A stretch of 64,000 nucleotides of DNA from an uncultured Alphaproteobacteria bacterium (GTDB lineage Bacteria; Pseudomonadota; Alphaproteobacteria; Rhizobiales; Xanthobacteraceae), in assembly GCA_963826945.1 (NCBI GenBank), contig CAWGYY010000004.1:222399-286398 (forward strand), read 5' to 3'. The notes below the pieces were generated by a model, which was not told the DNA's origin, did no database searches, and saw nothing but the letters and a program-made list of their open reading frames with translations. Below are positions 9,800-56,415 of this stretch, one piece after another. Within the stretch, counting starts at the first letter, position 1. Each line of letters opens with the position of its first letter. The translations under genes and the position numbers were made by a program.

Positions 9800-11627
9800 G
9801 TGGAGGTGATCATGCCGCCTGTCGCCCTCGTCCACGCGCGTGACACTGTAGTGCCGCGAGCGAGCAAAACCGCAGCCGAAGGGACTGCGGTTCGGGAATC
9901 GCCTCCCGACACCGCATTCCAGGTTCTCGACCGTGCGGCGCATGCGGCCATTTCCCAGGCCACGCTGGGCGTATCGCCGGCCGCGCTGGGAGGAGCTTTT
10001 TTCGACTGGTGGGTGCATCTTGCGTTCTCGCCCGGCAAGCAGGCTGAACTGGCACAGCAAGCGATCGCCGGAGCGGCGGACAATTTCGCCTTCGCCGCGC
10101 AATCCGCGTTCGGCTCGCCGGGCGACCCATCCGAGCGCGCATTGCCGCACGATGATCGCTTTCGCGCGCCGGACTGGCGGACTTTTCCGTTCAACGTCTA
10201 CGCTCACAACTTTTTGTCGATCGAACGCTGGTGGGAAGCGGCGACGACGCATGTGCGCGGCGTGAGCCAGCGCCACGACGACATGGCAAATTTCACGGCG
10301 CGGCAGCTCCTCGATACCGTCGCTCCCTCGAATTTCATCGTGACCAACCCGGAGGTCCTGGCGCGCACGCGCGCCGAGTCGGGCGCCAATCTGGTGCGCG
10401 GTTACGCGAACTTGATTGCGGACTTGACGCGAGCGCGAAGCGGCGCGCCGCCGCGCGGCACGGAGGCATTCAAGGTCGGCGAAACAGTGGCGGTGACGCC
10501 GGGCAAGGTCGTCCTGCGCACGCGTCTTGCGGAAATCATCCAATACGCGCCTGCAACCGACCGCGTCCGCCCGGAGCCGATCGTGATCGTGCCGGCCTGG
10601 ATCATGAAATACTACATCCTCGACCTGTCGCCGGCGAATTCCCTGGTCAAGTTCCTCACCCAGCAGGGCTTCACCGTATTCATGGTTTCCTGGAAGAATC
10701 CGGGCGCTGAGGACCGCGACGTCGGTTTCGACGATTATCGCACCGAAGGCGTGCTCCCGGCGATCAAGGCGGCGACCGCCATCACCGGCGCCCGCAAGGT
10801 GCATGCGGTCGGCTATTGCCTCGGTGGAACGCTGCTCGCGATCACTGCCGCGGCCATGGCGCGCGACGGCGACGAGCGGCTGGCGAGCCTGAGCCTGTTC
10901 GCCGCCCAGGTCGACTTCACCGAGGCCGGCGAGCTGATGCTTTTCATCGACGAGAGCCAGGTCACGTTCCTCGAAGACATGATGTGGGAGCGCGGCTACC
11001 TCGACTCCAGGCAGATGGCCGGGGCGTTCCAGATAGCGCGATCGAACGATCTGATCTGGTCGCGCAGCATCCACGACTACCTGATGGGCGAGCAGTCGTT
11101 TCCAATCGACATCATGGCCTGGAATGCCGATGCGACACGCATGCCCTTCCGCATGCATTCGCAATATCTGCGGTCGCTTTTTCTCAACAACGATCTCGCC
11201 GAGGGCCGGTTCGAAGTGGCCGGCCGCCCGGTGGCGCTGCCCGACATCCGCCTGCCCCTCTTCGCCGTCTCCACCGAGCGCGACCACGTCGCGCCTTGGC
11301 ACTCGGTCTTCAAGCTCCATCTTTTGACCGACGCCGAGATCACTTTCGTCCTGACGAACGGCGGGCACAACGCGGGCATATCTGTCCGAGCCGGGACATC
11401 CGCATCGCCATTTCCGCATGGCTGTGCGCGAGCACGGTGAAACTTATATCGATCCCGAAAAATGGCGTGCCGAACATGTGCCGCACGAGGGTTCATGGTG
11501 GCCGGCATGGAGCGCATGGCTTGCTGCGCGATCCGGCGAGCCGGTTCCACCGCCGCCGCTCGGCGACGCGGCAGCCGGCTTTGCGGCGATCGAGGATGCG
11601 CCGGGACGCTACGTCTTCATGAAGTAA
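9800..11627 (+). pseudogene. phaC: class I poly(3-hydroxyalkanoate) synthase, interrupted by a 1-nt frameshift near 11381-11385
   Basis: ORFs 9800..11440 and 11418..11627 join as ...VLTNGGHNAGI/(V)SEPGHPHRHFRMAVREHGETYIDPEKW.... The lipase-box region is VHAVGYCLGG. The expected IVSEPG is read in two frames. Confidence 0.85.
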
Positions 11628-38203: not shown

Positions 38204-38650
38204 TTATTTCGACTGTGGCACTTTCGGCAGAGTCGTTTCGCTCTTGACGGTTTTGAAGTTCTCACGTGCGCGAGCTATGGCGGTCTTTTGATCTTCTGCG
38301 CTCAAATCGCGAAGTGACGCGTCAGCGTTAACCGCTTTCGCTGTGGTCACGCGCGCGCGAGGCTGGCGGCACGATGGTGAGGTCGCCGGCCTGCGCCGTC
38401 GCCAGTTCTTTTTAGCGGATTGTTGTTGGCAGATTCCAAGTTCGGGACGACGATGGAGGTCGGTCAGCAGAGCGACCCGCTCGCGCCGCCTGGACGGTGC
38501 TACGGCTGCTGATGACGTCGCCGATTCCTTTTTCGTGATTTCCGCCCGAGCTCCATCGTCGCGATCGGTTGGCGCGACCGACGCCGATGTCGGCTTGGCC
38601 TGGTCGGGCGGCGGCGATGATGTCGGCGGCCGCCGGCGCGGCGCGAGCCA
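38204..38650 (-). CDS. doubtful hypothetical ORF abutting the tandem array
   Basis: Only the C-terminal approx 45 aa (VNADASLRDLSAEDQKTAIARARENFKTVKSETTLPKVPQSK) look protein-like. The upstream part is Arg/Pro-rich and may be off-frame. The track ORF extends into repeat unit 1. Confidence 0.25.
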   Translation of the reverse strand, partial: WLAPRRRPPTSSPPPDQAKPTSASVAPTDRDDGARAEITKKESATSSAAVAPSRRRERVALLTDLHRRPELGICQQQSAKKNWRRRRPATSPSCRQPRARVTTAKAVNADASLRDLSAEDQKTAIARARENFKTVKSETTLPKVPQSK

Positions 38651-38693
38651 CGGGGTCATCGGCAACAGATCGGAAATTCTACAGCACTTACGT

Positions 38694-41600
38694 CTCAATG
38701 TCGAGCTCTCTCTCCCGAATTTTGGGCTGCCGCGCTCGCGGTCTTTATCCCTTGGCGAGGGGCTGCCGGATTCGACCGGCGCTCGGGATGGCACCCGCGC
38801 TGCTGGTGTGTTGGATCGCGGGCGGCGGCGGCTTTTTTCTTTTTAGCGTTGTGGCCGTCGAGCCACCGGGTCGATCGCGGCCGGCACCTGGCGTCGTCGA
38901 CCTTCGCTGGGGTACTCAATGTCGAGCTCTCTCTCCCGAATTTTGGGCTGCCGCGCTCGCGGTCTTTATCCCTTGGCGAGGGGCTGCCGGATTCGACCGG
39001 CGCTCGGGATGGCACCCGCGCTGCTGGTGTGTTGGATCGCGGGCGGCGGCGGCTTTTTTCTTTTTAGCGTTGTGGCCGTCGAGCCACCGGGTCGATCGCG
39101 GCCGGCACCTGGCGTCGTCGACCTTCGCTGGGGTACTCAATGTCGAGCTCTCTCTCCCGAATTTTGGGCTGCCGCGCTCGCGGTCTTTATCCCTTGGCGA
39201 GGGGCTGCCGGATTCGACCGGCGCTCGGGATGGCACCCGCGCTGCTGGTGTGTTGGATCGCGGGCGGCGGCGGCTTTTTTCTTTTTAGCGTTGTGGCCGT
39301 CGAGCCACCGGGTCGATCGCGGCCGGCACCTGGCGTCGTCGACCTTCGCTGGGGTACTCAATGTCGAGCTCTCTCTCCCGAATTTTGGGCTGCCGCGCTC
39401 GCGGTCTTTATCCCTTGGCGAGGGGCTGCCGGATTCGACCGGCGCTCGGGATGGCACCCGCGCTGCTGGTGTGTTGGATCGCGGGCGGCGGCGGCTTTTT
39501 TCTTTTTAGCGTTGTGGCCGTCGAGCCACCGGGTCGATCGCGGCCGGCACCTGGCGTCGTCGACCTTCGCTGGGGTACTCAATGTCGAGCTCTCTCTCCC
39601 GAATTTTGGGCTGCCGCGCTCGCGGTCTTTATCCCTTGGCGAGGGGCTGCCGGATTCGACCGGCGCTCGGGATGGCACCCGCGCTGCTGGTGTGTTGGAT
39701 CGCGGGCGGCGGCGGCTTTTTTCTTTTTAGCGTTGTGGCCGTCGAGCCACCGGGTCGATCGCGGCCGGCACCTGGCGTCGTCGACCTTCGCTGGGGTACT
39801 CAATGTCGAGCTCTCTCTCCCGAATTTTGGGCTGCCGCGCTCGCGGTCTTTATCCCTTGGCGAGGGGCTGCCGGATTCGACCGGCGCTCGGGATGGCACC
39901 CGCGCTGCTGGTGTGTTGGATCGCGGGCGGCGGCGGCTTTTTTCTTTTTAGCGTTGTGGCCGTCGAGCCACCGGGTCGATCGCGGCCGGCACCTGGCGTC
40001 GTCGACCTTCGCTGGGGTACTCAATGTCGAGCTCTCTCTCCCGAATTTTGGGCTGCCGCGCTCGCGGTCTTTATCCCTTGGCGAGGGGCTGCCGGATTCG
40101 ACCGGCGCTCGGGATGGCACCCGCGCTGCTGGTGTGTTGGATCGCGGGCGGCGGCGGCTTTTTTCTTTTTAGCGTTGTGGCCGTCGAGCCACCGGGTCGA
40201 TCGCGGCCGGCACCTGGCGTCGTCGACCTTCGCTGGGGTACTCAATGTCGAGCTCTCTCTCCCGAATTTTGGGCTGCCGCGCTCGCGGTCTTTATCCCTT
40301 GGCGAGGGGCTGCCGGATTCGACCGGCGCTCGGGATGGCACCCGCGCTGCTGGTGTGTTGGATCGCGGGCGGCGGCGGCTTTTTTCTTTTTAGCGTTGTG
40401 GCCGTCGAGCCACCGGGTCGATCGCGGCCGGCACCTGGCGTCGTCGACCTTCGCTGGGGTACTCAATGTCGAGCTCTCTCTCCCGAATTTTGGGCTGCCG
40501 CGCTCGCGGTCTTTATCCCTTGGCGAGGGGCTGCCGGATTCGACCGGCGCTCGGGATGGCACCCGCGCTGCTGGTGTGTTGGATCGCGGGCGGCGGCGGC
40601 TTTTTTCTTTTTAGCGTTGTGGCCGTCGAGCCACCGGGTCGATCGCGGCCGGCACCTGGCGTCGTCGACCTTCGCTGGGGTACTCAATGTCGAGCTCTCT
40701 CTCCCGAATTTTGGGCTGCCGCGCTCGCGGTCTTTATCCCTTGGCGAGGGGCTGCCGGATTCGACCGGCGCTCGGGATGGCACCCGCGCTGCTGGTGTGT
40801 TGGATCGCGGGCGGCGGCGGCTTTTTTCTTTTTAGCGTTGTGGCCGTCGAGCCACCGGGTCGATCGCGGCCGGCACCTGGCGTCGTCGACCTTCGCTGGG
40901 GTACTCAATGTCGAGCTCTCTCTCCCGAATTTTGGGCTGCCGCGCTCGCGGTCTTTATCCCTTGGCGAGGGGCTGCCGGATTCGACCGGCGCTCGGGATG
41001 GCACCCGCGCTGCTGGTGTGTTGGATCGCGGGCGGCGGCGGCTTTTTTCTTTTTAGCGTTGTGGCCGTCGAGCCACCGGGTCGATCGCGGCCGGCACCTG
41101 GCGTCGTCGACCTTCGCTGGGGTACTCAATGTCGAGCTCTCTCTCCCGAATTTTGGGCTGCCGCGCTCGCGGTCTTTATCCCTTGGCGAGGGGCTGCCGG
41201 ATTCGACCGGCGCTCGGGATGGCACCCGCGCTGCTGGTGTGTTGGATCGCGGGCGGCGGCGGCTTTTTTCTTTTTAGCGTTGTGGCCGTCGAGCCACCGG
41301 GTCGATCGCGGCCGGCACCTGGCGTCGTCGACCTTCGCTGGGGTACTCAATGTCGAGCTCTCTCTCCCGAATTTTGGGCTGCCGCGCTCGCGGTCTTTAT
41401 CCCTTGGCGAGGGGCTGCCGGATTCGACCGGCGCTCGGGATGGCACCCGCGCTGCTGGTGTGTTGGATCGCGGGCGGCGGCGGCTTTTTTCTTTTTAGCG
41501 TTGTGGCCGTCGAGCCACCGGGTCGATCGCGGCCGGCACCTGGCGTCGTCGACCTTCGCTGGGGTACTCAATGTCGAGCTCTCTCTCCCGAATTTTGGGC

Positions 41601-43037
41601 TGCCGCGCTCGCGGTCTTTATCCCTTGGCGAGGGGCTGCCGGATTCGACCGGCGCTCGGGATGGCACCCGCGCTGCTGGTGTGTTGGATCGCGGGCGGCG
41701 GCGGCTTTTTTCTTTTTAGCGTTGTGGCCGTCGAGCCACCGGGTCGATCGCGGCCGGCACCTGGCGTCGTCGACCTTCGCTGGGGTACTCAATGTCGAGC
41801 TCTCTCTCCCGAATTTTGGGCTGCCGCGCTCGCGGTCTTTATCCCTTGGCGAGGGGCTGCCGGATTCGACCGGCGCTCGGGATGGCACCCGCGCTGCTGG
41901 TGTGTTGGATCGCGGGCGGCGGCGGCTTTTTTCTTTTTAGCGTTGTGGCCGTCGAGCCACCGGGTCGATCGCGGCCGGCACCTGGCGTCGTCGACCTTCG
42001 CTGGGGTACTCAATGTCGAGCTCTCTCTCCCGAATTTTGGGCTGCCGCGCTCGCGGTCTTTATCCCTTGGCGAGGGGCTGCCGGATTCGACCGGCGCTCG
42101 GGATGGCACCCGCGCTGCTGGTGTGTTGGATCGCGGGCGGCGGCGGCTTTTTTCTTTTTAGCGTTGTGGCCGTCGAGCCACCGGGTCGATCGCGGCCGGC
42201 ACCTGGCGTCGTCGACCTTCGCTGGGGTACTCAATGTCGAGCTCTCTCTCCCGAATTTTGGGCTGCCGCGCTCGCGGTCTTTATCCCTTGGCGAGGGGCT
42301 GCCGGATTCGACCGGCGCTCGGGATGGCACCCGCGCTGCTGGTGTGTTGGATCGCGGGCGGCGGCGGCTTTTTTCTTTTTAGCGTTGTGGCCGTCGAGCC
42401 ACCGGGTCGATCGCGGCCGGCACCTGGCGTCGTCGACCTTCGCTGGGGTACTCAATGTCGAGCTCTCTCTCCCGAATTTTGGGCTGCCGCGCTCGCGGTC
42501 TTTATCCCTTGGCGAGGGGCTGCCGGATTCGACCGGCGCTCGGGATGGCACCCGCGCTGCTGGTGTGTTGGATCGCGGGCGGCGGCGGCTTTTTTCTTTT
42601 TAGCGTTGTGGCCGTCGAGCTACCGGGTCGATCGCGGCCGGCACCTGGCGTCGTCGACCTTCGCTGGGGTACTCAATGTCGAGCTCTCTCTCCCGAATTT
42701 TCGGCTGCCGCGCTCGCGGTCTTTATCCCTTGGCGAGGGGCTGCCGGATTCGACCGGCGCTCGGGATGGCACCCGCGCTGCTGGTGTGTTGGATCGCGGG
42801 CGGCGGCGGCTTTTTTCTTTTTAGCGTTGTGGCCGTCGAGCTACCGGGTCGATCGCGGCCGGCACCTGGCGTCGTCGACCTTCGCTGGGGTACTCAATGT
42901 CGAGCTCTCTCTCCCGAATTTTCCGGCTGCCGCGCTCGCGGTCTTTATCCCTTGGCGAGGGGCTGCCGGATTCGACCGGCGCTCGGGATGGCACCCGCGC
43001 TGCTGGTGTGTTGGATCGCGGGCGGCGGCGGCTTTTC
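38694..43037. repeat. tandem array, 221-bp unit x approx 19.6 copies, near-identical, non-coding
   Basis: ORF-track entries recur with an exact 221-nt offset (38919, 39140 ... 42676). I read the units directly. The only variants seen are at 42621, 42702, 42842 and 42923-42924. Every frame has stops. Confidence 0.97.
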
Positions 43038-43117
43038 AATAAAGGGAAACAAGGCGATTGCTGACCAACCGCCCTTGCTCAAGCCTTTCTACAAAGAGTC
43101 ACGATTCCAACGAACGT

Positions 43118-43666
43118 CTACGCGTCAGCAATTGGATTATGCAAAGACTCAATTATTATGCAGTCAAGAAAACCGTCGAATTCCGACTTTTGACGGTCTT
43201 TCAACATGTAGCTGATCCAGCCCGCGTTTGCACCGTCGCGGACAAGAATTCTGCCGTAACCCCACTCGACCTTCGCCCAACAGTCGCGGATCAAGTTTTC
43301 GAGGGCAATAGCATCGAAGTGCGAGGGCAATTCAATTGCACAATGAATATGCCATCGACCTGTTGACGCGCCACGCTCCCATGAACGTAGTCCGCGGGCG
43401 CGGACCTCGCCTTTTTCCAGTACGGGTAATACACGAAGACGTTTGCCGTGCCGACGAAATGCAGATCCATATGCAGCTCTGTTGAGGAGGTTCATGAAGT
43501 GCCGAAAAGCGTGTCTGCACCGATAGTCGTCGGTCTTTACCCAACCGCCGCTGTCGGGCTGGTGGCCTTGCTTCAAGGTTAGCGTGACGTCGCAAAAGTC
43601 ACCCCAGCTGCTCGTATCGAACAAGTTTGATTTGGCGGATTCAAACGGATCAGATCGAACTTCCAT
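43118..43666 (-). CDS. HUH-type rolling-circle Rep-like protein (inovirus Gp2-like layout)
   Basis: 182 aa with motif I FCDVTLTLK, motif II GRWHIHCAIE (H-U-H) and motif III GWISYMLKD (Y-x-x-K) in the canonical order. Confidence 0.55.
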   Translation of the reverse strand: MEVRSDPFESAKSNLFDTSSWGDFCDVTLTLKQGHQPDSGGWVKTDDYRCRHAFRHFMNLLNRAAYGSAFRRHGKRLRVLPVLEKGEVRARGLRSWERGASTGRWHIHCAIELPSHFDAIALENLIRDCWAKVEWGYGRILVRDGANAGWISYMLKDRQKSEFDGFLDCIIIESLHNPIADA

Positions 43667-44138
43667 CGAATAGTTATTCGCATGTGTTACAGAGGTGATT
43701 TCACGAAGCTGCGAAAGCGACTTACAGCTTTCCGGAATTTATCGTCGGAGGCGGCATGCGGCCATCCATTACTCAGGGTACTGGTTCGAATTCAAGAAGC
43801 ATTAGCTCTCGCCGCGGTCTTTTTGTATTGTATAGTGAGCGCAGGGTTATGGGAATGCCCATTTTGCAACGGCGCGCCATCGAAAAAGTGCGACCGGCGT
43901 AGGTACACGCGGCGTTTCTTCGTGGAAGGCCTCACGGCAGTCGCTTGAGACCGGCGAGTTGTAGCTCTTTGCCGATCTCGCGGATCTCAAGGAGGCAAAG
44001 AGGTTGTCGGTTCGTAAAGCCGGCGGGCGACGAAGATCTCACCTCATGAAATGGACCCGCGATCGTGACGCGCTTTCGCATTCTTGGCAATTTGCAGATG
44101 TTGGATCCGATAGCGTAGTTCGAAAATGTCGAGGAACA

Positions 44139-45281
44139 CTACTCTTTTGCCTCCCGAATCATTCTCGAACCCGCCTTCCACTTCCTGGCTTTGACGCTTG
44201 CGGCCGTATTATATTCGGGCTTCTTGGTCACGTCACCGATGACAAGTACGCCTCCCTCGCGCGGAGCTTTGATCTTCGGGTGCTTGCCCCACTTTTCTGG
44301 ACGGTGCCACTCCAACCAAAACCGCATCGCCTTCATGTCCACTTTGCGAACGGTCTCTGGTATAGGGTTTCCGTTCTCATCCCTCAGGTAGGCGTCAGGG
44401 CCTTGATAACCGTGGTCCACGAGACCCTGGTCGATCTTGTAGACCACACGGCCTCGATAGCTTAGAACTTTGTCATAGCCAACAAATGCCCTTTCGAGCA
44501 TGCGGTCGAGGAGTTTTTGAACTGCCTCGTCGATCGCTAATTTGCAGAGTTCGTGAAATCTCCCCGTAATGTCTTGCCACTCGATGTCGTAACCGTCGTC
44601 GCCAGCCTCGCTGCGCCTTATCCAGTACGCAAGCGTCTTGCGGTGAATGCCCGCCTTGTTCGCTGCGTAATAATAAAAAGGGCATTCCGCGAGGGCGTCG
44701 AGGACAAGCAACATGAGCTCAGGGCAAAGCTTTGGGGTGGATCTCGCGATCCCCGCCGGCGGTTTTTGCTTCTTGAGTTGGCCCCGGCCGCTACGAACTC
44801 GTTTGCCGCCAATCGCCGCGAGTGCGGTTGTCTCTGTTTTAGGTTTCTCGGCCTCACTCGTGGCCTCCTTGCCGGCGGGCAGCGGCTCAGCTTTCGGCGT
44901 GGGCAGCGATGTCGGCTCGTGTGGAGGCGAGTGGTCTCCGGCCGGAACCTCGACCAACCCAGCGTGGTCTTCACCGTCGCCTTGCGGTTTTTCTGTCGTG
45001 AACTCGCATGCCGTTTTGAATTTGGGCGGCGCCTCGTTCTTGAGCAGCTCGATCGCGATCGGTTCAGCGTCCGTCACTTTCTCAGGCGATGCCCGGTGCG
45101 CGCGCAGCGCTGCGCCCTCCGGCGAGGTTTGGCTCACCATCGTTGTGGGGTCCCAAGTTCCTTCGCGCTTGCGGTGAAGTTCCTCGTGCTTGGCGACAAG
45201 TCGCCTCGTGGCGAGCGGCGCGGGGATGTGCTCAGTCATAGCATCCTCCTTCGATTCCTTGTCGCTCTTCTGCACGGGCAA
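44139..45281 (-). CDS. phage-derived protein with terminase-small-subunit-like C-terminal half
   Basis: 380 aa. The N-half is low-complexity and acidic/Pro-rich. The C-half reads ECPFYYYAANKAGIHRKTLAYWIRRSEAG...VDMKAMRFWLEWHRPEKWGKHPKI, an HTH plus the RKW..K.YG tail typical of small terminase / DNA-packaging proteins. Confidence 0.55.
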   Translation of the reverse strand: MPVQKSDKESKEDAMTEHIPAPLATRRLVAKHEELHRKREGTWDPTTMVSQTSPEGAALRAHRASPEKVTDAEPIAIELLKNEAPPKFKTACEFTTEKPQGDGEDHAGLVEVPAGDHSPPHEPTSLPTPKAEPLPAGKEATSEAEKPKTETTALAAIGGKRVRSGRGQLKKQKPPAGIARSTPKLCPELMLLVLDALAECPFYYYAANKAGIHRKTLAYWIRRSEAGDDGYDIEWQDITGRFHELCKLAIDEAVQKLLDRMLERAFVGYDKVLSYRGRVVYKIDQGLVDHGYQGPDAYLRDENGNPIPETVRKVDMKAMRFWLEWHRPEKWGKHPKIKAPREGGVLVIGDVTKKPEYNTAASVKARKWKAGSRMIREAKE

Positions 45282-45833: not shown

Positions 45834-46532
45834 TCAGTTGCCTGGAGCTTCGTTATTTGTCGAAATTCCTGGACCGGCGGTAGGCAAACTCAGACCCACA
45901 TTGGAGAACGGCAGTAATACGTGTCTCAGTTCAATATGGATTTTATTGGCCCGTTGGTGGCCCGTCGCGAAACGCTCGATACCCGCTATTGGTTGCGCCG
46001 AAGTAGGACCGGTAATGAGGCCTAATGGGACTTTCTGCGCGGCGACTGCTGCACCTAACTGTTTCAAGGCAAAGCCCAAGTCACCATCCATTACATATCC
46101 TAACATGCAGCCAACTGGGAGACCCTCCGCGTATTGCTCGGTTAGAAACCGCATCATCCCGTCGTTGACATAGCGTGTGGCCAGAGAGGCCCTGCCGTTA
46201 TTGGTAACATTCAGGCGCTTGCACTCATATGCGAGATATCGCTCTCGCTCCTGGTCTAACAGAACCGCGAAATCTATCTTGCCCTTGCTGAACTTCGCGC
46301 CGCCCGGGTGGGTTCCAAACGGCTCATGCTGATAGATCACCAGGTGGCAAATGCGCCTGACAATGGCATCTTTGGAAAGGAGATGAACGAGGTTGATTGT
46401 GATGGTGTCTTCTTCCGGCTGGCCGGATAACAAAGCTACGCACGCTGGCCAATGATGCAGGATGCGTTGCAAGAAACGCTCGTCGACCGTGATGAAGCGA
46501 TCCTTCCAGACTTGAGGATTGCCGACGATCAA
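45834..46532 (-). CDS. putative PD-(D/E)xK restriction-endonuclease-like protein
   Basis: 232 aa. Candidate catalytic pattern GKIDFAVLLDQERERYLAYECKRL (D ... E-x-K). The TTG start overlaps the stop of the upstream methyltransferase (TTGA). Confidence 0.55.
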   Translation of the reverse strand: MIVGNPQVWKDRFITVDERFLQRILHHWPACVALLSGQPEEDTITINLVHLLSKDAIVRRICHLVIYQHEPFGTHPGGAKFSKGKIDFAVLLDQERERYLAYECKRLNVTNNGRASLATRYVNDGMMRFLTEQYAEGLPVGCMLGYVMDGDLGFALKQLGAAVAAQKVPLGLITGPTSAQPIAGIERFATGHQRANKIHIELRHVLLPFSNVGLSLPTAGPGISTNNEAPGN

Positions 46533-49500
46533 GAAGCTCGCTCCCGACGAGCGTCAAGATCGATCGCGTGTTGCAGGTCCCCAGCGATCGAATCCGCATC
46601 GGACAAGGCGGCTGATCGCAGCCAAAAACGTCGCTGCATCGGCTTTACGAGATAAAGATTCTTACCAATGAAAACACGTAAGTCCGGCATTAGCTGGAAA
46701 TTGCCTGCGATAGGTTGATGAATGTGCTGCATAATTCTCGACAACGCATCGCCGAGAAGAACAACATCTTCCTCATTGTAGGCTAGTCCCTGATCGGAGC
46801 CGTTAAGGGCCAAACGCAGCACCCCAATATCCGCATTTTTGGCTTCGAGAGTGGCGTGAAGGCGATTTCCGCCCTGCAACCACTCATCGACACTACGCAT
46901 CAACGTTGCGGCATATTCTCGTCGCTCAGGTTCGGTAGGCGACTTCCATAAATCGGGGAAACTGCCTTGGTGCGGCTGAACGGCGGGCATTATGCGTTCA
47001 ATCATGTCATCGATGAGAATGATCTCATCATTGGACAGGCAAAAGTATTCGTAGGACCATCTATCGATTTCAGAGAGCGTCGTGCTGTCGTTCTGATCTG
47101 ATGTAAGCGGCAAGCCGAGGTTCGCGATCTCCCGATCGATCACAGCAATCAATTTTTCAGACGCAGCTTCCGCCCGTCTCGGCTCTGGCAGATCGCCGGA
47201 TGATGGAAACGGCAAATGGAGCAACTCCGACTGCTTCACCTCCGGCCGCTCCGAACCAAATGAAGCCGTGCCGTGGAATGCAAACCAGGCGGCGACCCGG
47301 CTATTGAGCAACGCCGCAAGAAGCTTGCCCCTTGCCTTTTCAGCGGGCGGGACAGTGACGCCCTGAATGATGTCCTGGAACGTCAGATCAGTTTCCGTGT
47401 ATGAAGCGCGAAGGCGCCCAAGAGAGGTCGTGCGGGGCACGAGAATGCGCGCACCCGAGAACGCAGCTTCAAAGCCTTTTCGGCGAACGCGTTTCGAGTG
47501 CGCTGGCCGGAGATAGGAAACCGTCTGCGCGATGGGACGGAAGGCGTCGATGGGCAGGTCGGGAAGCGTACCAACGAGCTTGCTCATCGAATATTTGGAA
47601 GGGCGCTGACCTTCCTGCGGTTCATTGTATGGCTGATAGCCCATTCCAATGACCCATTGCCCAGCCGCGCTTTGCCGACTACGACTGAGGCTCCCGTATT
47701 CTTTTATCAGGAAGCTAAGCCTCGGTAATTGCGAAAAATAGCTGAAGAGCTTTGCCTCAGGTTCGTGCATCCATAAACGACGTTTGAAGGCCAGGGCGTC
47801 GGACTGCGCGCTGGTTGAAGTCATGATGAACCTATCCGCGCTGCTGAGCGTGATCATTCGCTTGATTTGTAGGTTCAAATCGGCCTTCGGTGCCCAATAT
47901 TCAAAGTGATATTCGGAATCTTGTTCGTGATTAGGTACGTACATAATCAGAGCGGTCGGGCGGATGGCGCCGTCGAACAATTGGAAACGCAAGTCAGCGA
48001 AATTGATAATCCGACGGACGCGGCTTTCCCGAATGAGGCGCTTGCGGGCTGAAAGTGAACTGTCGGCGTGATTGTGTAGGAAGCCCATTGCCGGAAGGAG
48101 AAAGGCAGCTAATCCATCAGGTCGCAGGAGCCGCAAAGCCTTCCACACAAAGGCCCATGCGTCTTCGCGGCCCGGCATTGGCAAGCCATGCTTCCGGCAC
48201 CATCGTACGGATGAACGGTTGGGGCCGCGCCAACTCGTCCAGGGTGGGTTTCCGACGATCACGTTGAAGACAGATGTCGCGGGGTCGGAATCGTCAAAGA
48301 AATCACGGTGAACAAGCGTGTCGCCCCAAAGTTCGGGCAGTATCTTCTTGTTCTTGACCAACACGCGAAGATCGGGCGGTTCCACCTCTTCGAGAAGGGC
48401 TACATACAACGAAAAGACGGCGACCCGTACTGCGCCTCCATTGAGATCCCATCCGTGAATGCGCCGCAGCATGGCGACCAAGCTGTCCCAACGAATTTTT
48501 TTGGCCCGGTGCCTTACTCTCCAATTCTCGCAAAGCCGTTGAAACGAACGCACCAAAAAGACGCCCGAGCCACATGCCGGGTCGAGGAACTGGCCCCTTT
48601 CTTTAACCACTGGAGAGAGTAACTCCCAAAACTGCGAGACCACGGTATCCGCGAGATACATGGGTGTGTAGTACGCGCCTTGCGCTTTACGGTCTTCCTC
48701 CCGCTCACCGAGAAAGCGATCATAGACTGCGCTTACCAATTCGATTGGAATGAAACGAAAGTCGTATCCCCAAAATCGATATTGACCACCCTTCGCCATT
48801 TCCTCGCGTCCGCTTCGAAAGCTCGCAAGCACGTCAAGGTGTTCCACTTTAACTGATGGTGCTTTTGCGCGCGGATCGAACGAGCACGGCGCGACGAAAA
48901 GATTGCCGTTGAAATCATCTTTAAGCGTCGCAAATAGCAAGCTGAGATATTTCACATCTCTCCGTGCGAGCAACGATGAAAAGCTATCGGCCGCGTCGCG
49001 AGTCGCGTCCTTAAAATAATCCGCGGTGATGATTTTCCTATCTTCAAGATAAGCAATAAACATCGTCTGAATGAGCAACGCTTGCGCAGCGTCGGGCGAC
49101 AGGCTTTTGCAAAGCGATTTATGCAACTCGGTCAGGTTGTCGAGCAGAACTTGGTCAATGCGCTCCTTCGGCCGAAAGAAATCCGCATGTTCCTTCCAGA
49201 GGCGCCCGGATTCCGCTCCATAGACAATATTGCAAATCTTAAGTGCGTCGGCGGTAGCGTTGAGCGCCTCAATCAGGCAGCGTTGATCAAACTCATGGCC
49301 CCACTCTCTCTGAGGTGTTCTTGCAAGAGAATAAGCGCGTAGCGTGTCGCCAGCCGTAACGAGAAGAAGACTAGCGAGACCCTGGTTCCAGAGCGCACCG
49401 TGAATATTGACAACGCTTGCTGTGTCGAACTGGGCGACGTTCAGAAGCGCGATCGTTGGGACACCTTGAACGCAAAAGATACCCGACAGGCCGAGTTCGT

Positions 49501-50131
49501 CGAGTGCGGTACGGATCGCCAGCGCATGAGGCGTGTCTACTACCGCGTCGGCTGTCTCGTAGAACTCCGGCGCATGCCGGTTGGCAAGGCTTAGCCGTTC
49601 TTTCCATTCCGGCGCCAGCGGAAGCGCGCTCACCTCACTCATGCCCGTTGCCTCCGCGCTCGTCTTTCGTGTGCGGAGAGTCGGAATAGATGGACGCTGC
49701 TGACTGGCGGCCAAGGGAAGCGTGCGAGACATCGCGTCTCGCACCAAGGCAATAATGGGGCTTAGCGGACAAACGATGACGAGGTTCTGACCAGTAGGCT
49801 CTTGGGTGGCTTCTATAATTCGGCAGGTTCGCTGCTGAATATCCACAAGGAGTGTTTTGCCTTCCAGCGTGACCCACGAATTGGCGTTGCAAATTTCCAC
49901 CGCCGCCTGAGAGATTTCCGGCAATAGGCCGACGCGAATGCCGCATTGATCGGTCAGGCGCCGAAGTATGCCGGCCGCGAGCAGATCGTCGATTGAAAAT
50001 CGGGAGGAATATCTTTTGCGCTGAGCGAATGGGGGCAAAACGCGCTTCCAGTGGCGAAATGTTTCCACCGAAATGCCGAGCGTGCTGCGAAGCTGAGTTT
50101 GGCTGAATTCCACGGGCCCAATCCCAAACAA
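46529..50131 (-). CDS. large gamma-class N6-adenine DNA methyltransferase (type IIG/IIL- or PglX-like) with N-terminal MerR-like HTH extension
   Basis: 1200-aa intact ORF. Motifs: GAYYTPMYLADTVV, motif I LDPACGSGVFLV, motif IV VIVGNPPWTSW. Helical region: LLIQTMFIAYLEDRKII. N-terminal approx 160 aa: QTQLRSTLGISVETFRHWKRVL...RFSIDDLLAAGILRRL. Confidence 0.85.
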   Translation of the reverse strand: MFGIGPVEFSQTQLRSTLGISVETFRHWKRVLPPFAQRKRYSSRFSIDDLLAAGILRRLTDQCGIRVGLLPEISQAAVEICNANSWVTLEGKTLLVDIQQRTCRIIEATQEPTGQNLVIVCPLSPIIALVRDAMSRTLPLAASQQRPSIPTLRTRKTSAEATGMSEVSALPLAPEWKERLSLANRHAPEFYETADAVVDTPHALAIRTALDELGLSGIFCVQGVPTIALLNVAQFDTASVVNIHGALWNQGLASLLLVTAGDTLRAYSLARTPQREWGHEFDQRCLIEALNATADALKICNIVYGAESGRLWKEHADFFRPKERIDQVLLDNLTELHKSLCKSLSPDAAQALLIQTMFIAYLEDRKIITADYFKDATRDAADSFSSLLARRDVKYLSLLFATLKDDFNGNLFVAPCSFDPRAKAPSVKVEHLDVLASFRSGREEMAKGGQYRFWGYDFRFIPIELVSAVYDRFLGEREEDRKAQGAYYTPMYLADTVVSQFWELLSPVVKERGQFLDPACGSGVFLVRSFQRLCENWRVRHRAKKIRWDSLVAMLRRIHGWDLNGGAVRVAVFSLYVALLEEVEPPDLRVLVKNKKILPELWGDTLVHRDFFDDSDPATSVFNVIVGNPPWTSWRGPNRSSVRWCRKHGLPMPGREDAWAFVWKALRLLRPDGLAAFLLPAMGFLHNHADSSLSARKRLIRESRVRRIINFADLRFQLFDGAIRPTALIMYVPNHEQDSEYHFEYWAPKADLNLQIKRMITLSSADRFIMTSTSAQSDALAFKRRLWMHEPEAKLFSYFSQLPRLSFLIKEYGSLSRSRQSAAGQWVIGMGYQPYNEPQEGQRPSKYSMSKLVGTLPDLPIDAFRPIAQTVSYLRPAHSKRVRRKGFEAAFSGARILVPRTTSLGRLRASYTETDLTFQDIIQGVTVPPAEKARGKLLAALLNSRVAAWFAFHGTASFGSERPEVKQSELLHLPFPSSGDLPEPRRAEAASEKLIAVIDREIANLGLPLTSDQNDSTTLSEIDRWSYEYFCLSNDEIILIDDMIERIMPAVQPHQGSFPDLWKSPTEPERREYAATLMRSVDEWLQGGNRLHATLEAKNADIGVLRLALNGSDQGLAYNEEDVVLLGDALSRIMQHIHQPIAGNFQLMPDLRVFIGKNLYLVKPMQRRFWLRSAALSDADSIAGDLQHAIDLDARRERAS

Positions 50132-54810: not shown

Positions 54811-56415
54811 CTAACCGGATACGGATACATGCCCTTTGATCAGATCGGCGCCCTTCTCTCCGATCATGATGCTTGGTGCGTTGGTGTTGCCGCTCGGGAT
54901 GGTAGGCATCACCGAGGCATCGATGACACGCAAGCCGTCGATGCCGCGCACCCGCAGCTGATCGTCCACCACAGCCATCGGATCGCTGCCCATCTTGCAG
55001 GTGCCGACCCAGTGATGCTGCGACTGCGCGGTTCGCCGCGCGTAATCGAGAATCTCATCGTCGGTGCGGCAATCCGGGCCCGGAATCACTTCGCGCACGA
55101 TCCGCGACTTCAGCGGCTCGGTGGCGAAAATCCGCCGCATCATCCGTACGCCATTGATCACCGATTGGCGATCCCACTCGGCGTCGAGATAATTCGCGAC
55201 AATGATCGGCCGGTCGTTCGGGTCAGCCGAGCGCAGCGTAACTTTGCCTCGCGAATGCGGCCGCAGCGGCGAACACGACGATCCGATCGCCGGCGTCGAT
55301 CCGATCACCAGCGTTCCGGCTTTGCTGAATTCCCAGCTCACGGGCCGAAAGAAGATTTGCGTGTCCGGCCGTTCCGAGCCAGGCACGACCCTGACCCATG
55401 CGCAGGCTTGAGACGCCCCGGTCGTCAGCAAACCGCGATGTGTCAGCATGTAGTAGACGCCGTGCAGATAAACCCGCAGCCCGCGCAACTCCTTGTTGAT
55501 CGAACTGTCTTCCGTCGAATTGCAGGTGTGATGGATGTAGACGTGATCCTGCAGATTTTCGCCGACGCCGGGAAGATCCGCGATGACGGGAATGCCCAAT
55601 TCGCTCAACCTTGCTGCGGGACCAATCCCGGAACGCATCAGCACACGTGGTGAATTGAACACGCCAGCGGCGACGATGATCTCCTTGCCGGCCTCCTCGA
55701 CATGCAGTTCACCGCCGCGGCTGTACTCGACCGCAACGGCGCGTCCATCCTTGCATCTGAGCCGATGCACCAGCGCGCCGGTCACGATTGCCAGATTGGC
55801 GCGTCCTCGCGCCGGGGTGAGGAACGCATCGGCGCTCGGTGTGGCGCTTGCCTTTATAGATGGTGAACTGGATGTAGCCGACGCCTTCCTGGCGCTCGCC
55901 GTTGATGTCATCGTTGCGGCGAAGACCGGCATTCACGCCGGCCTCGATGAAGTCCGCGAGGCCGGCAGCTTGATCATCGGATCGCTGACGGCGAGCACTC
56001 CGTTCCGGCCGTGATAGTCGCTTGGCTCGCCTTCGCGGCGCTCTGATTTCTTGAAATAGGCGAGCACGTTTTCCCAGTCCCAGCCGCGATTGCCGAGCTG
56101 CCGCCAGCCGTCATAATCCTCCGGATGGCCGCGGACATAGGCCATGCCGTTGATCAGGCTGGTGCCGCCCAAGCCGCGCCCACGCGGCGCGTAAACCGAC
56201 CGGCCGCCAAGGTTCGGCTCCGGCTCGGTCGAATAGCCCCAGTTCAGTTTGCCTGGAAAGATCAGCCGGCCGACGCCCGAAGGCATGCCGACCCAGATGC
56301 TTCTGGGGCGCGGTCCGGCCTCCAGCAGCAGCACGCGTACGGCAGGATCTTCGGACAGCCTGCTGGCCACGACGCAGCCGGCAGAGCCTGCACCGATGAT
56401 AATGTAGTCGAACAT
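54811..56415 (-). pseudogene. GMC family oxidoreductase (choline-dehydrogenase-like), at least 2 frameshifts (about 55960 and about 55840)
   Basis: MFDYIIIGAGSAGCVVASRLSEDP... (ORF 55933..56415), GLADFIEAGVNAGLRRNDDINGERQEGVGYIQFT (third frame) and SADAFLTPARGRANLAIVTG...HHWVGTCKMG...GNTNAPSIMIGEKGAD (ORF 54811..55932). Confidence 0.85.

Follow-up and report, generated by a model that had tools for sequence, protein, structure and literature searches.

A small HUH protein, an M13-like origin and tandem DNA arrays in a fixed arrangement on chromosomal islands of uncultured Alphaproteobacteria

The DNA described here, referred to as the window, is a 64,000-nucleotide (nt) stretch from an uncultured alphaproteobacterium of the Xanthobacteraceae (contig CAWGYY010000004.1, positions 222,399 to 286,398). 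On its minus strand it carries a gene for a 182-amino-acid (aa) protein resembling the rolling-circle initiators and nickases of the HUH class, and behind that gene a sequence related to the M13 replication origin and then a tandem array of several kilobases (kb). The same arrangement of gene, origin-like sequence and array recurs in dozens of other loci. The best reading of the gene and its origin is that of a rep-ori cassette situated at one end of a chromosomal island. We favour, with restrained confidence, the view that nicking or rolling-circle initiation by this cassette drives the amplification and homogenization of the adjacent monomers. Protein and origin together appear as a reduced, chromosomal version of the gpII system of filamentous phages, structurally close to the initiators of the Microviridae.

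The original prediction, made from the letters of the window, had described a minus-strand open reading frame (ORF) with the three HUH motifs in order and had called it Rep-like. The motifs are present, and they are the very ones that the family conserves. Motif I reads FCDVTLTLK (VTLTLKQ in the family), motif II reads RWHIHCAIE and includes H106 and H108 (family form RWHxHAAIEPP), and motif III is GWISYMLKDRQK with Y153, K156 and K160 (family form GWIxYMLKxRQK). Both histidines are at least 90% conserved, as are Y153 and K160, and K156 is invariant (alignment of 66 sequences, down to 32% identity). Motifs I, II and III are the conserved positions in alignments reaching down to 32-35% identity. 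Only one tyrosine is conserved in the family, and the protein is therefore of the Y1 type.

The sole Pfam match of the protein is REP_ORF2-G2P (PF23343; E=6.6e-5, 23.6 bits, profile positions 4-97 of 99), which lies below the gathering cut-off of that family; a precomputed match to the same family is recorded for many homologs. Close homologs are abundant in metagenomes (>1000 in all; 800 representatives with E<1e-3 at 50% clustering). NCBIfam gave no match for the protein, a sequence search of the PDB returned chance-level matches only (E ~0.5, beta-lactamases), and the match in PHROGs was marginal. Based on an alignment of 66 diverse sequences, an AlphaFold model was obtained with a predicted local distance difference test score (pLDDT) of 86 and a predicted template-modelling score (pTM) of 0.83; a shallow alignment had yielded a pLDDT of 46. 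The model follows the beta-alpha-beta-beta-alpha-beta core order expected of HUH nucleases, with the motif II histidines on a strand (E105-112) and motif III on a helix (148-154). Among the viral structures of BFVD it has 63 matches at E<=1e-3 with template-modelling scores of ~0.4-0.5, and the named ones are Microviridae replication initiators/VP4. The Rep-like identity proposed at first is supported by the conserved motifs and the predicted fold, together with the sub-threshold family match. As judged from motifs and model, the ORF encodes a single-domain, one-tyrosine HUH protein of the Rep class, in the gpII/ORF2 lineage, with a predicted catalytic activity. One distant family member (P0343) joins PF23343 to a DNA-ligase domain (PF04679).

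The sequence that follows the stop codon is conserved across loci, and its first 23 nt read ACGTTCTTT-GGAATC-GGACTCTT. The M13 plus-strand origin is ccACGTTCTTTaatagtGGACTCTTgttcc, of which the core ACGTTCTTTaatagtGGACTCTT was compared. When the family consensus, ACGTTCTTT-N6-GGACTCTT, is set against it, the 9-mer and the 8-mer are identical and the spacing is identical as well. In 32 loci the stop codon is directly followed by the pattern ACGTTCKTT-N6,7-GACTCTT, which is also found at the M13 origin. The window carries the variant ACGTTCGTT-N8-GACTCTT (ACGTTCgTT-N8-GACTCTT), here called N, which has one match in the window and 0 in 100 shuffles. The phage protein gpII nicks after the T-run (GTTCTTT^AATA); by analogy, the nick in the window would fall after the T-run, near 43109/43108. 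The only inverted complementarity visible around this region is a 5-bp GAGTC/GACTC pairing with a 45-nt loop. According to a preprint, the oligonucleotide used experimentally as the gpII cleavage site, GTTCTTTAATAGTGGACTCTTGTTCCAAACTGGAACAACA, comes from the same M13 stretch (bioRxiv 10.1101/2023.12.22.573028).

Downstream of N lies a conserved, terminator-like hairpin with a T-rich tail (Table 1); compared over 30 loci, 4 of 9 pairs have changed in a compensatory manner. This hairpin may belong to the origin, as its downstream part, or terminate the gene, or do both. Relatives at 40-65% identity, which belong to other taxa, have retained both the post-stop motif and the hairpin, with CCTTGTT after the latter. 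On these comparisons the 80-bp spacer between gene and array is the cognate origin of the protein, with an M13-like nick-site core and then the conserved hairpin, and it is here that nicking is predicted. The earlier suggestion that the 221-bp array unit itself holds multiple origin or nick sites was not substantiated, in that the clear origin homolog lies in the spacer and the arrays offer only a weak origin-like motif, N', in one type of monomer. A palindrome with 6-bp arms had also been pointed out immediately upstream of the gene. It is indeed present at the start codon; in relatives, however, conservation is partial and the symmetry often lacking, and CGAATAACTATTCG is probably part of a translation-initiation or regulatory region.

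According to Tandem Repeats Finder, the window contains one large array (38694-43036), with a period of 221 bp, 19.6 copies and 99% matches. It starts 81-82 nt 3' of the HUH stop codon, in agreement with the distance of 80 bp first given. Perfect (100%) identity extends over copies 3-19; copy 2 departs from them by two changes, and copy 1 by a few, along with the loss of one base. These units are designated type 2, and the repeat region is closed by a diverged monomer designated type 1. When the latter is aligned with the type-1 monomers of another locus, L001, a core of ~70 nt is ~95% identical. It is this monomer that contains N', GTTCTTTTTAGCGGATTGTT, in inverted orientation, within the ~70-nt core. 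N' resembles N and the M13 core and is found once per type-1 monomer in loci L001, L011, L029, L035 and L039 and in about half of the units of L016; its significance is weak (p ~0.04 per monomer from the regex background). In arrays of the window type, the unit boundary on the origin side falls in an A-run complementary to N'. The G+C content of the array (39000-43000) is 0.66, compared with 0.53-0.58 in the rest of the island, and the plus-strand AT skew is -0.5.

The array appears to be non-coding. ORFs of 196 aa and 106 aa within it were considered and set aside as repeat artefacts, the 196-aa ones because the 221-bp period is not a multiple of 3; they stop after 2.7 units. Searches of the window with Rfam gave nothing at gathering thresholds and, when relaxed, only noise around the gene and the last array units, and no transfer RNA (tRNA) genes were found in the window. 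The monomer strands fold no better than shuffled sequences (z = -0.4 and -0.9).

A scan of species-representative genomes yielded 77 loci with the gene. Nearly all are from uncultured Alphaproteobacteria (Xanthobacteraceae, Pseudolabrys, Bradyrhizobium), many from long-read assemblies, with up to five copies per genome. In 36 loci an array begins 71-100 nt after the stop codon; the periods vary from 124 to 786 bp and the copy numbers from 2 to 19, and the copies are mostly 97-100% identical. A probe test was then applied to loci that had an N site, an intact gene and no less than 1.5 kb of sequence downstream, a locus being positive when the 80 nt at 100-180 nt post-stop had a further direct copy. 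Of 51 such loci, 38 had direct repeats just after the gene, whereas 183 control probes taken from the upstream sequence of these loci gave 0. The co-occurrence of homologs and tandem arrays, for which the original prediction had proposed a search, is therefore real: the link between gene and array is beyond chance and recurs in dozens of independent loci. Short-read contigs typically break 50-220 nt past the gene, as expected if an array follows it.

Units from different loci are homologous (65-97% identity); they co-vary with the protein but diverge much faster. Matches to the monomer core number 51 downstream of HUH genes and 2 elsewhere, with 0 elsewhere in the window. Arrays can also differ behind one and the same protein: loci L080, L081 and L082 encode an identical HUH protein and carry different arrays, with blocks of 470, 172 and 107 bp in varying numbers. 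Whether an intact gene predicts an array was considered as well, and the idea was dropped: the figure of 2/11 for disrupted genes is unreliable, the probe being misplaced at premature stops, and no claim is drawn from it. Three loci of the disrupted-gene set (L033, L037 and L076) do carry arrays.

Some further observations concern the mobility of these loci. L029 has two HUH copies 9.6 kb apart (375-1050 and 10001-10546), and the genomes CAVTDJ, CAWDZD and CAVSPX have at least 4 copies each on different contigs; the presence of several copies per genome implies that the cassette or its island multiplies within genomes. Transposase genes of the IS110 family are found at or near the 3' end of the HUH gene or in the array region (L038, L076, L050 at +1159 and L013 at +5288), and in L038 and L076 the insertion truncates the HUH gene at about the same point.

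The proximal boundary of the arrays, on the side of the origin, always lies 0-25 nt past the hairpin, and the phase of the unit at this point varies between lineages. The simplest explanation is that the stretch which has to be preserved ends here. The distal boundary is sequence-specific. As many as 21 of 31 complete arrays end at one of two sites, S1 or S2 (together referred to as S; a slash marks the end of the array). S1, ...GGT(T/C)AACGCGG(G)/, is the end of 14 arrays, with the palindrome CCTCGCGCGCGCGTGAGG ~20 nt before it, and S2, ...GAGAGAGAGC.CG...T(T/A)GAG/, is the end of 7. Counted from S, the units are whole. For example, L001 consists of a 35-nt partial unit, six 361-bp type-1 monomers ending at S1, exactly 2.0 type-2 units of 208 bp up to S2, and then the flank. 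Shorter variant units are present in L025, L051, L060 and L014, and in each of them one deletion endpoint lies exactly at S. Type-1 and type-2 monomers have internal motifs in common, in the same order. Recurrent ends at S call for a site-specific break or join, and the HUH protein is the only enzyme consistently linked to the arrays.

Several derivations of the array and its ends were tried and rejected. The array does not represent end-to-end junctions of a circular element, the post-S sequence being absent to the left of the island (BLAST of units against the masked locus; motif scan with <=3 mismatches). The idea that the distal flank is a diverged copy of the second half of the unit found no BLAST support in most loci, and in the window a whole type-1 monomer occupies this place. 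S was also considered as a copy of N, and a comparison by eye revealed no convincing similarity; since S is unlike N, the HUH enzyme is only a candidate for the action at S.

The mechanism that we favour would operate as follows. A nick at N would leave a 3'-OH, and by homology the extension from it would leave the gene behind, cross the hairpin and enter the array; alternatively, the nick would collapse passing replication forks. Nick-induced recombination, template switching or rolling-circle copying could then amplify, delete and homogenize the S-bounded monomers. Turnover driven by nicks would explain the start of the array at the origin end, the near-identity of its copies, the differences between strains and the breakpoints at S. 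That the protein nicks N, that synthesis runs in this direction, that S is cut or joined by the HUH enzyme and that the enzyme causes the amplification is what we infer.

A number of observations weigh against this mechanism or its premises. With 23.6 bits, the window protein stays under the PF23343 gathering cut-off of 27.8, and the structural matches in the PDB are weak (the parvovirus NS1 nuclease and the Rep protein of adeno-associated virus, AAV, at E ~0.01). N of the window departs from the consensus by a T-to-G change and by a spacer of 8 nt, not 6 nt. The array units are without N, to which S, by eye, bears no likeness, and the proximal boundary may merely mark the limit of selection on the origin. 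No repeats were scored in 13 of the 51 close loci, although some of those scored negative do contain 2-3 diverged units. A single clade of uncultured Xanthobacteraceae-like metagenome-assembled genomes supplied most of the loci, which are therefore not fully independent, though their array periods and junctions differ. Finally, the gene, N and the hairpin are all present in relatives at 40-65% identity, yet these have no arrays, five long-read loci included; arrays are confined to the clade at >= ~72% identity. The protein alone thus does not entail an array, and the association belongs to one clade.

Part of this would be expected if the array were a passive satellite, that is, a recombination-prone non-coding tail of the island subject to ordinary slippage and unequal crossing-over, its linkage to the gene reflecting common descent in one clade and its sharp edge a selected origin or terminator. 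The absence of arrays outside the clade, the repeat-free close loci and the differing unit phase at the origin all agree with such a history, as does the nested higher-order structure, which is typical of unequal exchange. We nevertheless judge it rather unlikely. None of the 183 control regions of the same islands has such repeats, and arrays of many periods all start within a 30-nt window by the origin. Slippage does not predict that 21 of 31 arrays end at a conserved site or that independent deletion variants share this site, and few kilobase arrays of perfect 200-500-bp units are known from bacteria. A quite different possibility is that the arrays are products of the assembly or polishing of long reads from a repeat, or from DNA amplified by rolling circle. 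Most loci do come from nanopore metagenome assemblies, and the copies are perfectly identical, yet such an artefact can hardly be credited when arrays of differing periods, with structured variants and specific ends, are present in dozens of independent assemblies and independent short-read assemblies break exactly where expected.

It is also conceivable that the monomers have a function. The nickase could start at one S and end at the next, freeing or re-inserting unit-length circles of single-stranded DNA (ssDNA) that serve in defence, in satellite packaging linked to a terminase small subunit (TerS), or in copy control. The monomers are indeed S-delimited and integral in number from S, they contain a ~70-nt core conserved inside otherwise fast-evolving sequence and, in type 1, the inverted origin-like N', and the islands hold defence cargo and TerS-like genes. 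Such a store of monomers is improbable all the same, given that S is unlike N, that the monomer strands show no special folding (z = -0.4, -0.9), that the units within an array are identical and not diverse, and that many family members are array-free. That the array is the working part of a new HUH-based system, with S-to-S monomers copied out as ssDNA circles or pasted back, is likewise quite doubtful. The remaining candidate is a HUH transposase of the IS200/IS605, IS91 or RAYT kind, with the monomers as non-autonomous derivatives or as targets, resembling repetitive extragenic palindromic (REP) elements, tandemly inserted at its end. The small single-domain Y1 size, the up to five copies per genome, the hairpin 12-25 nt before the junction (as at IS200/IS605 or Helitron ends) and the GC palindrome ~20 nt before S1 would suit a transposase. 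We consider it very improbable, however: the Pfam match of the protein is to the gpII/ORF2 Rep family, with none to Y1_Tnp, an M13-like origin lies beside the gene, the monomers are not dispersed, the post-S sequence does not occur at a left end of an element, and conserved synteny reaches upstream genes of varying content.

These transposable elements were also compared with the present loci one by one. IS200/IS605 TnpA and RAYT proteins were rejected as models: there is no match to Pfam Y1_Tnp (PF01797), the monomers are confined to the region downstream of the gene, and no dispersed REP-like family was seen. HUH elements of the Helitron/IS91 type can form head-to-tail arrays when termination is skipped, and they have a hairpin shortly before a specific 3' end. 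Their enzymes are Y2 proteins with their own or a recruited helicase, and the elements have defined 5' and 3' ends. IS91, ISCR and Helitron were accordingly rejected too: the present protein has a single conserved tyrosine, 182 aa and no helicase, and the left end of the monomer was not found upstream of the island genes. An integron- or CRISPR-like cassette array was dismissed, the units within a block being identical and not diverse; the likeness is limited to the adjacency of an enzyme gene and the site-delimited units.

With gpII of the Ff phages (M13/f1/fd) the protein shares the Pfam lineage PF23343 and motifs I-III in the Rep order, and the origins share the core blocks, their spacing and a hairpin after the core. 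At ~410 aa versus 182 aa, gpII is the larger, and the present protein corresponds to the nuclease domain only. Unlike in Ff, the origin here is located immediately 3' of the rep gene, and the element is a chromosomal one that occurs in multiple copies. No stem like that around the M13 nick site is evident at the window origin, and long downstream tandem arrays are not a known feature of Ff origins, though origin duplications occur in Ff miniphages. An inovirus prophage was rejected, since no morphogenesis ATPase (pI/Zot) or coat genes were recognised nearby; the neighbours are TerS-like, an unknown ORF, restriction-modification and metabolic genes. The best structural matches, Microviridae gpA/VP4, are larger viral proteins (177-555 aa), and no viral genome context exists here. 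Initiators of the Microviridae use two catalytic tyrosines.

Tandem units and filamentous-type HUH initiators meet in the CTXphi/RS1 prophage arrays, in which RstA starts in one element and ends in the next on tandem chromosomal units. Every CTXphi/RS1 unit has a rep gene and an origin, and integration takes place at dif via XerCD. The present units, unlike these, contain neither the gene nor the clear origin, and their loci lie scattered. With AAV, head-to-tail concatemers can form next to the nick in a Rep-dependent manner. Chromosomal nick sites that provoke rearrangement downstream have been described for AAV Rep and, in engineered form, for gpII, where the site acts as a unidirectional origin or as a place of fork collapse. 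The Rep-binding element together with the terminal resolution site (RBE+trs) of AAVS1 is a Rep-dependent chromosomal origin and an integration target (PMC1131931). For an M13 gpII site placed in a chromosome, the preprint reports direct-repeat recombination increased 267-538-fold, template switching downstream and a barrier formed by Ku (bioRxiv 10.1101/2023.12.22.573028). Those cases are eukaryotic or engineered, whereas the present pairing is natural, bacterial and in cis, and the unit is a resident monomer of 110-790 bp and not a viral genome. A full-text literature search found no published description of a HUH-origin cassette paired with long-period, near-perfect, site-delimited arrays.

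The island of the window extends over ~38.3-51.5 kb, with a G+C content below that of the right flank; its features are collected in Table 1. The gene upstream of the HUH gene encodes a TerS-like protein whose N-terminal half is of low complexity and rich in proline, glutamate and lysine. TerS-like homologs lie upstream on the same strand in ~20 related loci. Further upstream, a gene for a 1200-aa methylase and a 232-aa ORF overlap by 4 nt; both are unique to the window among all loci fetched and are therefore regarded as island cargo. In 32 of 80 loci a Ku homolog (~308 aa, 70-100% identical between loci) is encoded on the strand of the HUH gene, 1.1-6.8 kb upstream of it (L003-L079, e.g. L010, L017, L025 and L073), which is suggestive of a link between end joining and the nickase island. 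In L080-L082 (1035-7681) a complete Wadjet-like operon (DUF3375/JetA, JetB, JetC, JetD) stands immediately upstream of the HUH gene. Tyrosine integrases occur in 16 loci, in 4 of them directly beside tRNA genes (4 of 10 IntA loci), and a search for att repeats found no direct repeat connecting the tRNA/integrase side with the array side. The loci of more distant relatives (L130-L133, L083 and L085, at 40-65% identity) are small islands with a serine recombinase, an integrase and Mrr, an Eco57I-type methylase, a RES-Xre toxin-antitoxin pair and IS21, and ordinary small genes, not arrays, follow the post-stop motif and hairpin.

Searches of the viral collection IMG/VR and the phage collection INPHARED turned up no relatives, and tblastn gave no match among the 72,556 plasmids of PLSDB. 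The HUH loci sit inside contigs of 0.1-3 Mb. A rolling-circle plasmid replicon was rejected on these grounds, namely the lack of a PLSDB match and the location within large contigs. Outside the island, a GMC oxidoreductase is split into adjacent ORFs of 373 aa and 160 aa (N- and C-terminal domains; 54811-56415, minus strand), which could be a frameshift or pseudogene, or a long-read sequencing error.

Table 1. Features of the HUH locus and its island in the window (a slash marks a unit or array end, ^ the nick)
Feature	Coordinates	Strand	Remarks
Diverged type-1 monomer, ~371 nt	38323..38693	-	Closes the repeat region; ends at S1, CCTCGCGCGCGCGTGACC...GGTTAACGCTG/, then unrelated flank
Inverted origin-like motif N', GTTCTTTTTAGCGGATTGTT	38405..38424	+	Within the type-1 monomer, on the strand opposite to N
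Type-2 monomer array	38694..43036	-	144-nt partial unit beside the origin, then 19 units of 221 bp, each ending at S2, ...GGGAGAGAGAGCTCGACATTGAG/
S2 unit junction, ...CTCGACATTGAG/TACCCC			In the window array
Conserved hairpin AGGGCGGTTGGTCAGCAATCGCCTT with T-rich tail GTTTCCCTTT	43041..43075	-	Terminator-like, 10 pairs; hairpin proper 43051-43075
Putative origin core N, ACGTTCGTTGGAATCGTGACTCTT	43094..43117	-	Directly 3' of the stop codon; homologous to the M13/f1 nick region ACGTTCTTT^AATAGTGGACTCTT
HUH (Y1) rolling-circle initiator/nickase-like gene, 182 aa	43118..43666	-	ORF list, PF23343, conserved motifs, predicted fold
Palindrome CGAATAACTATTCG	43668..43681	.	Abuts the start codon of the HUH gene
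380-aa gene upstream of the HUH gene	44139..45281	-	C-terminal half similar to terminase small subunit (helix-turn-helix), PHROG 4044, E=2.2e-9
Island cargo: 232-aa ORF and 1200-aa restriction-modification protein	45834..50131	-	N6-adenine methylase/Eco57I-type (type IIG-like)

Few long, perfectly homogenized satellite-like arrays of several kilobases are known in bacteria, and how they arose can seldom be traced. If the relation proposed here is true, these loci offer a natural case in which a site-specific nickase, a recognisable origin and an array stand in fixed geometry, with dozens of variants. It would then become testable whether a protein-made nick or a rolling-circle origin in situ suffices to create or homogenize tandem DNA, and what the role of Ku is. 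The protein, the smallest gpII-type initiator found here (~180 aa), and its recognition site of ~24 bp, close to that of M13, may be of interest for ssDNA production and for nick-based genome engineering. The presence of arrays also explains the systematic breaks of short-read assemblies at HUH loci. More broadly, the analysis draws attention to a family of chromosomal islands in soil Alphaproteobacteria that carry restriction-modification, Wadjet, Ku and TerS-like genes. Should the monomers turn out to be a functional store, the array would provide such an island with a tunable, self-homogenizing multicopy DNA element, for example for defence, for TerS-mediated hijacking of packaging or for copy control.

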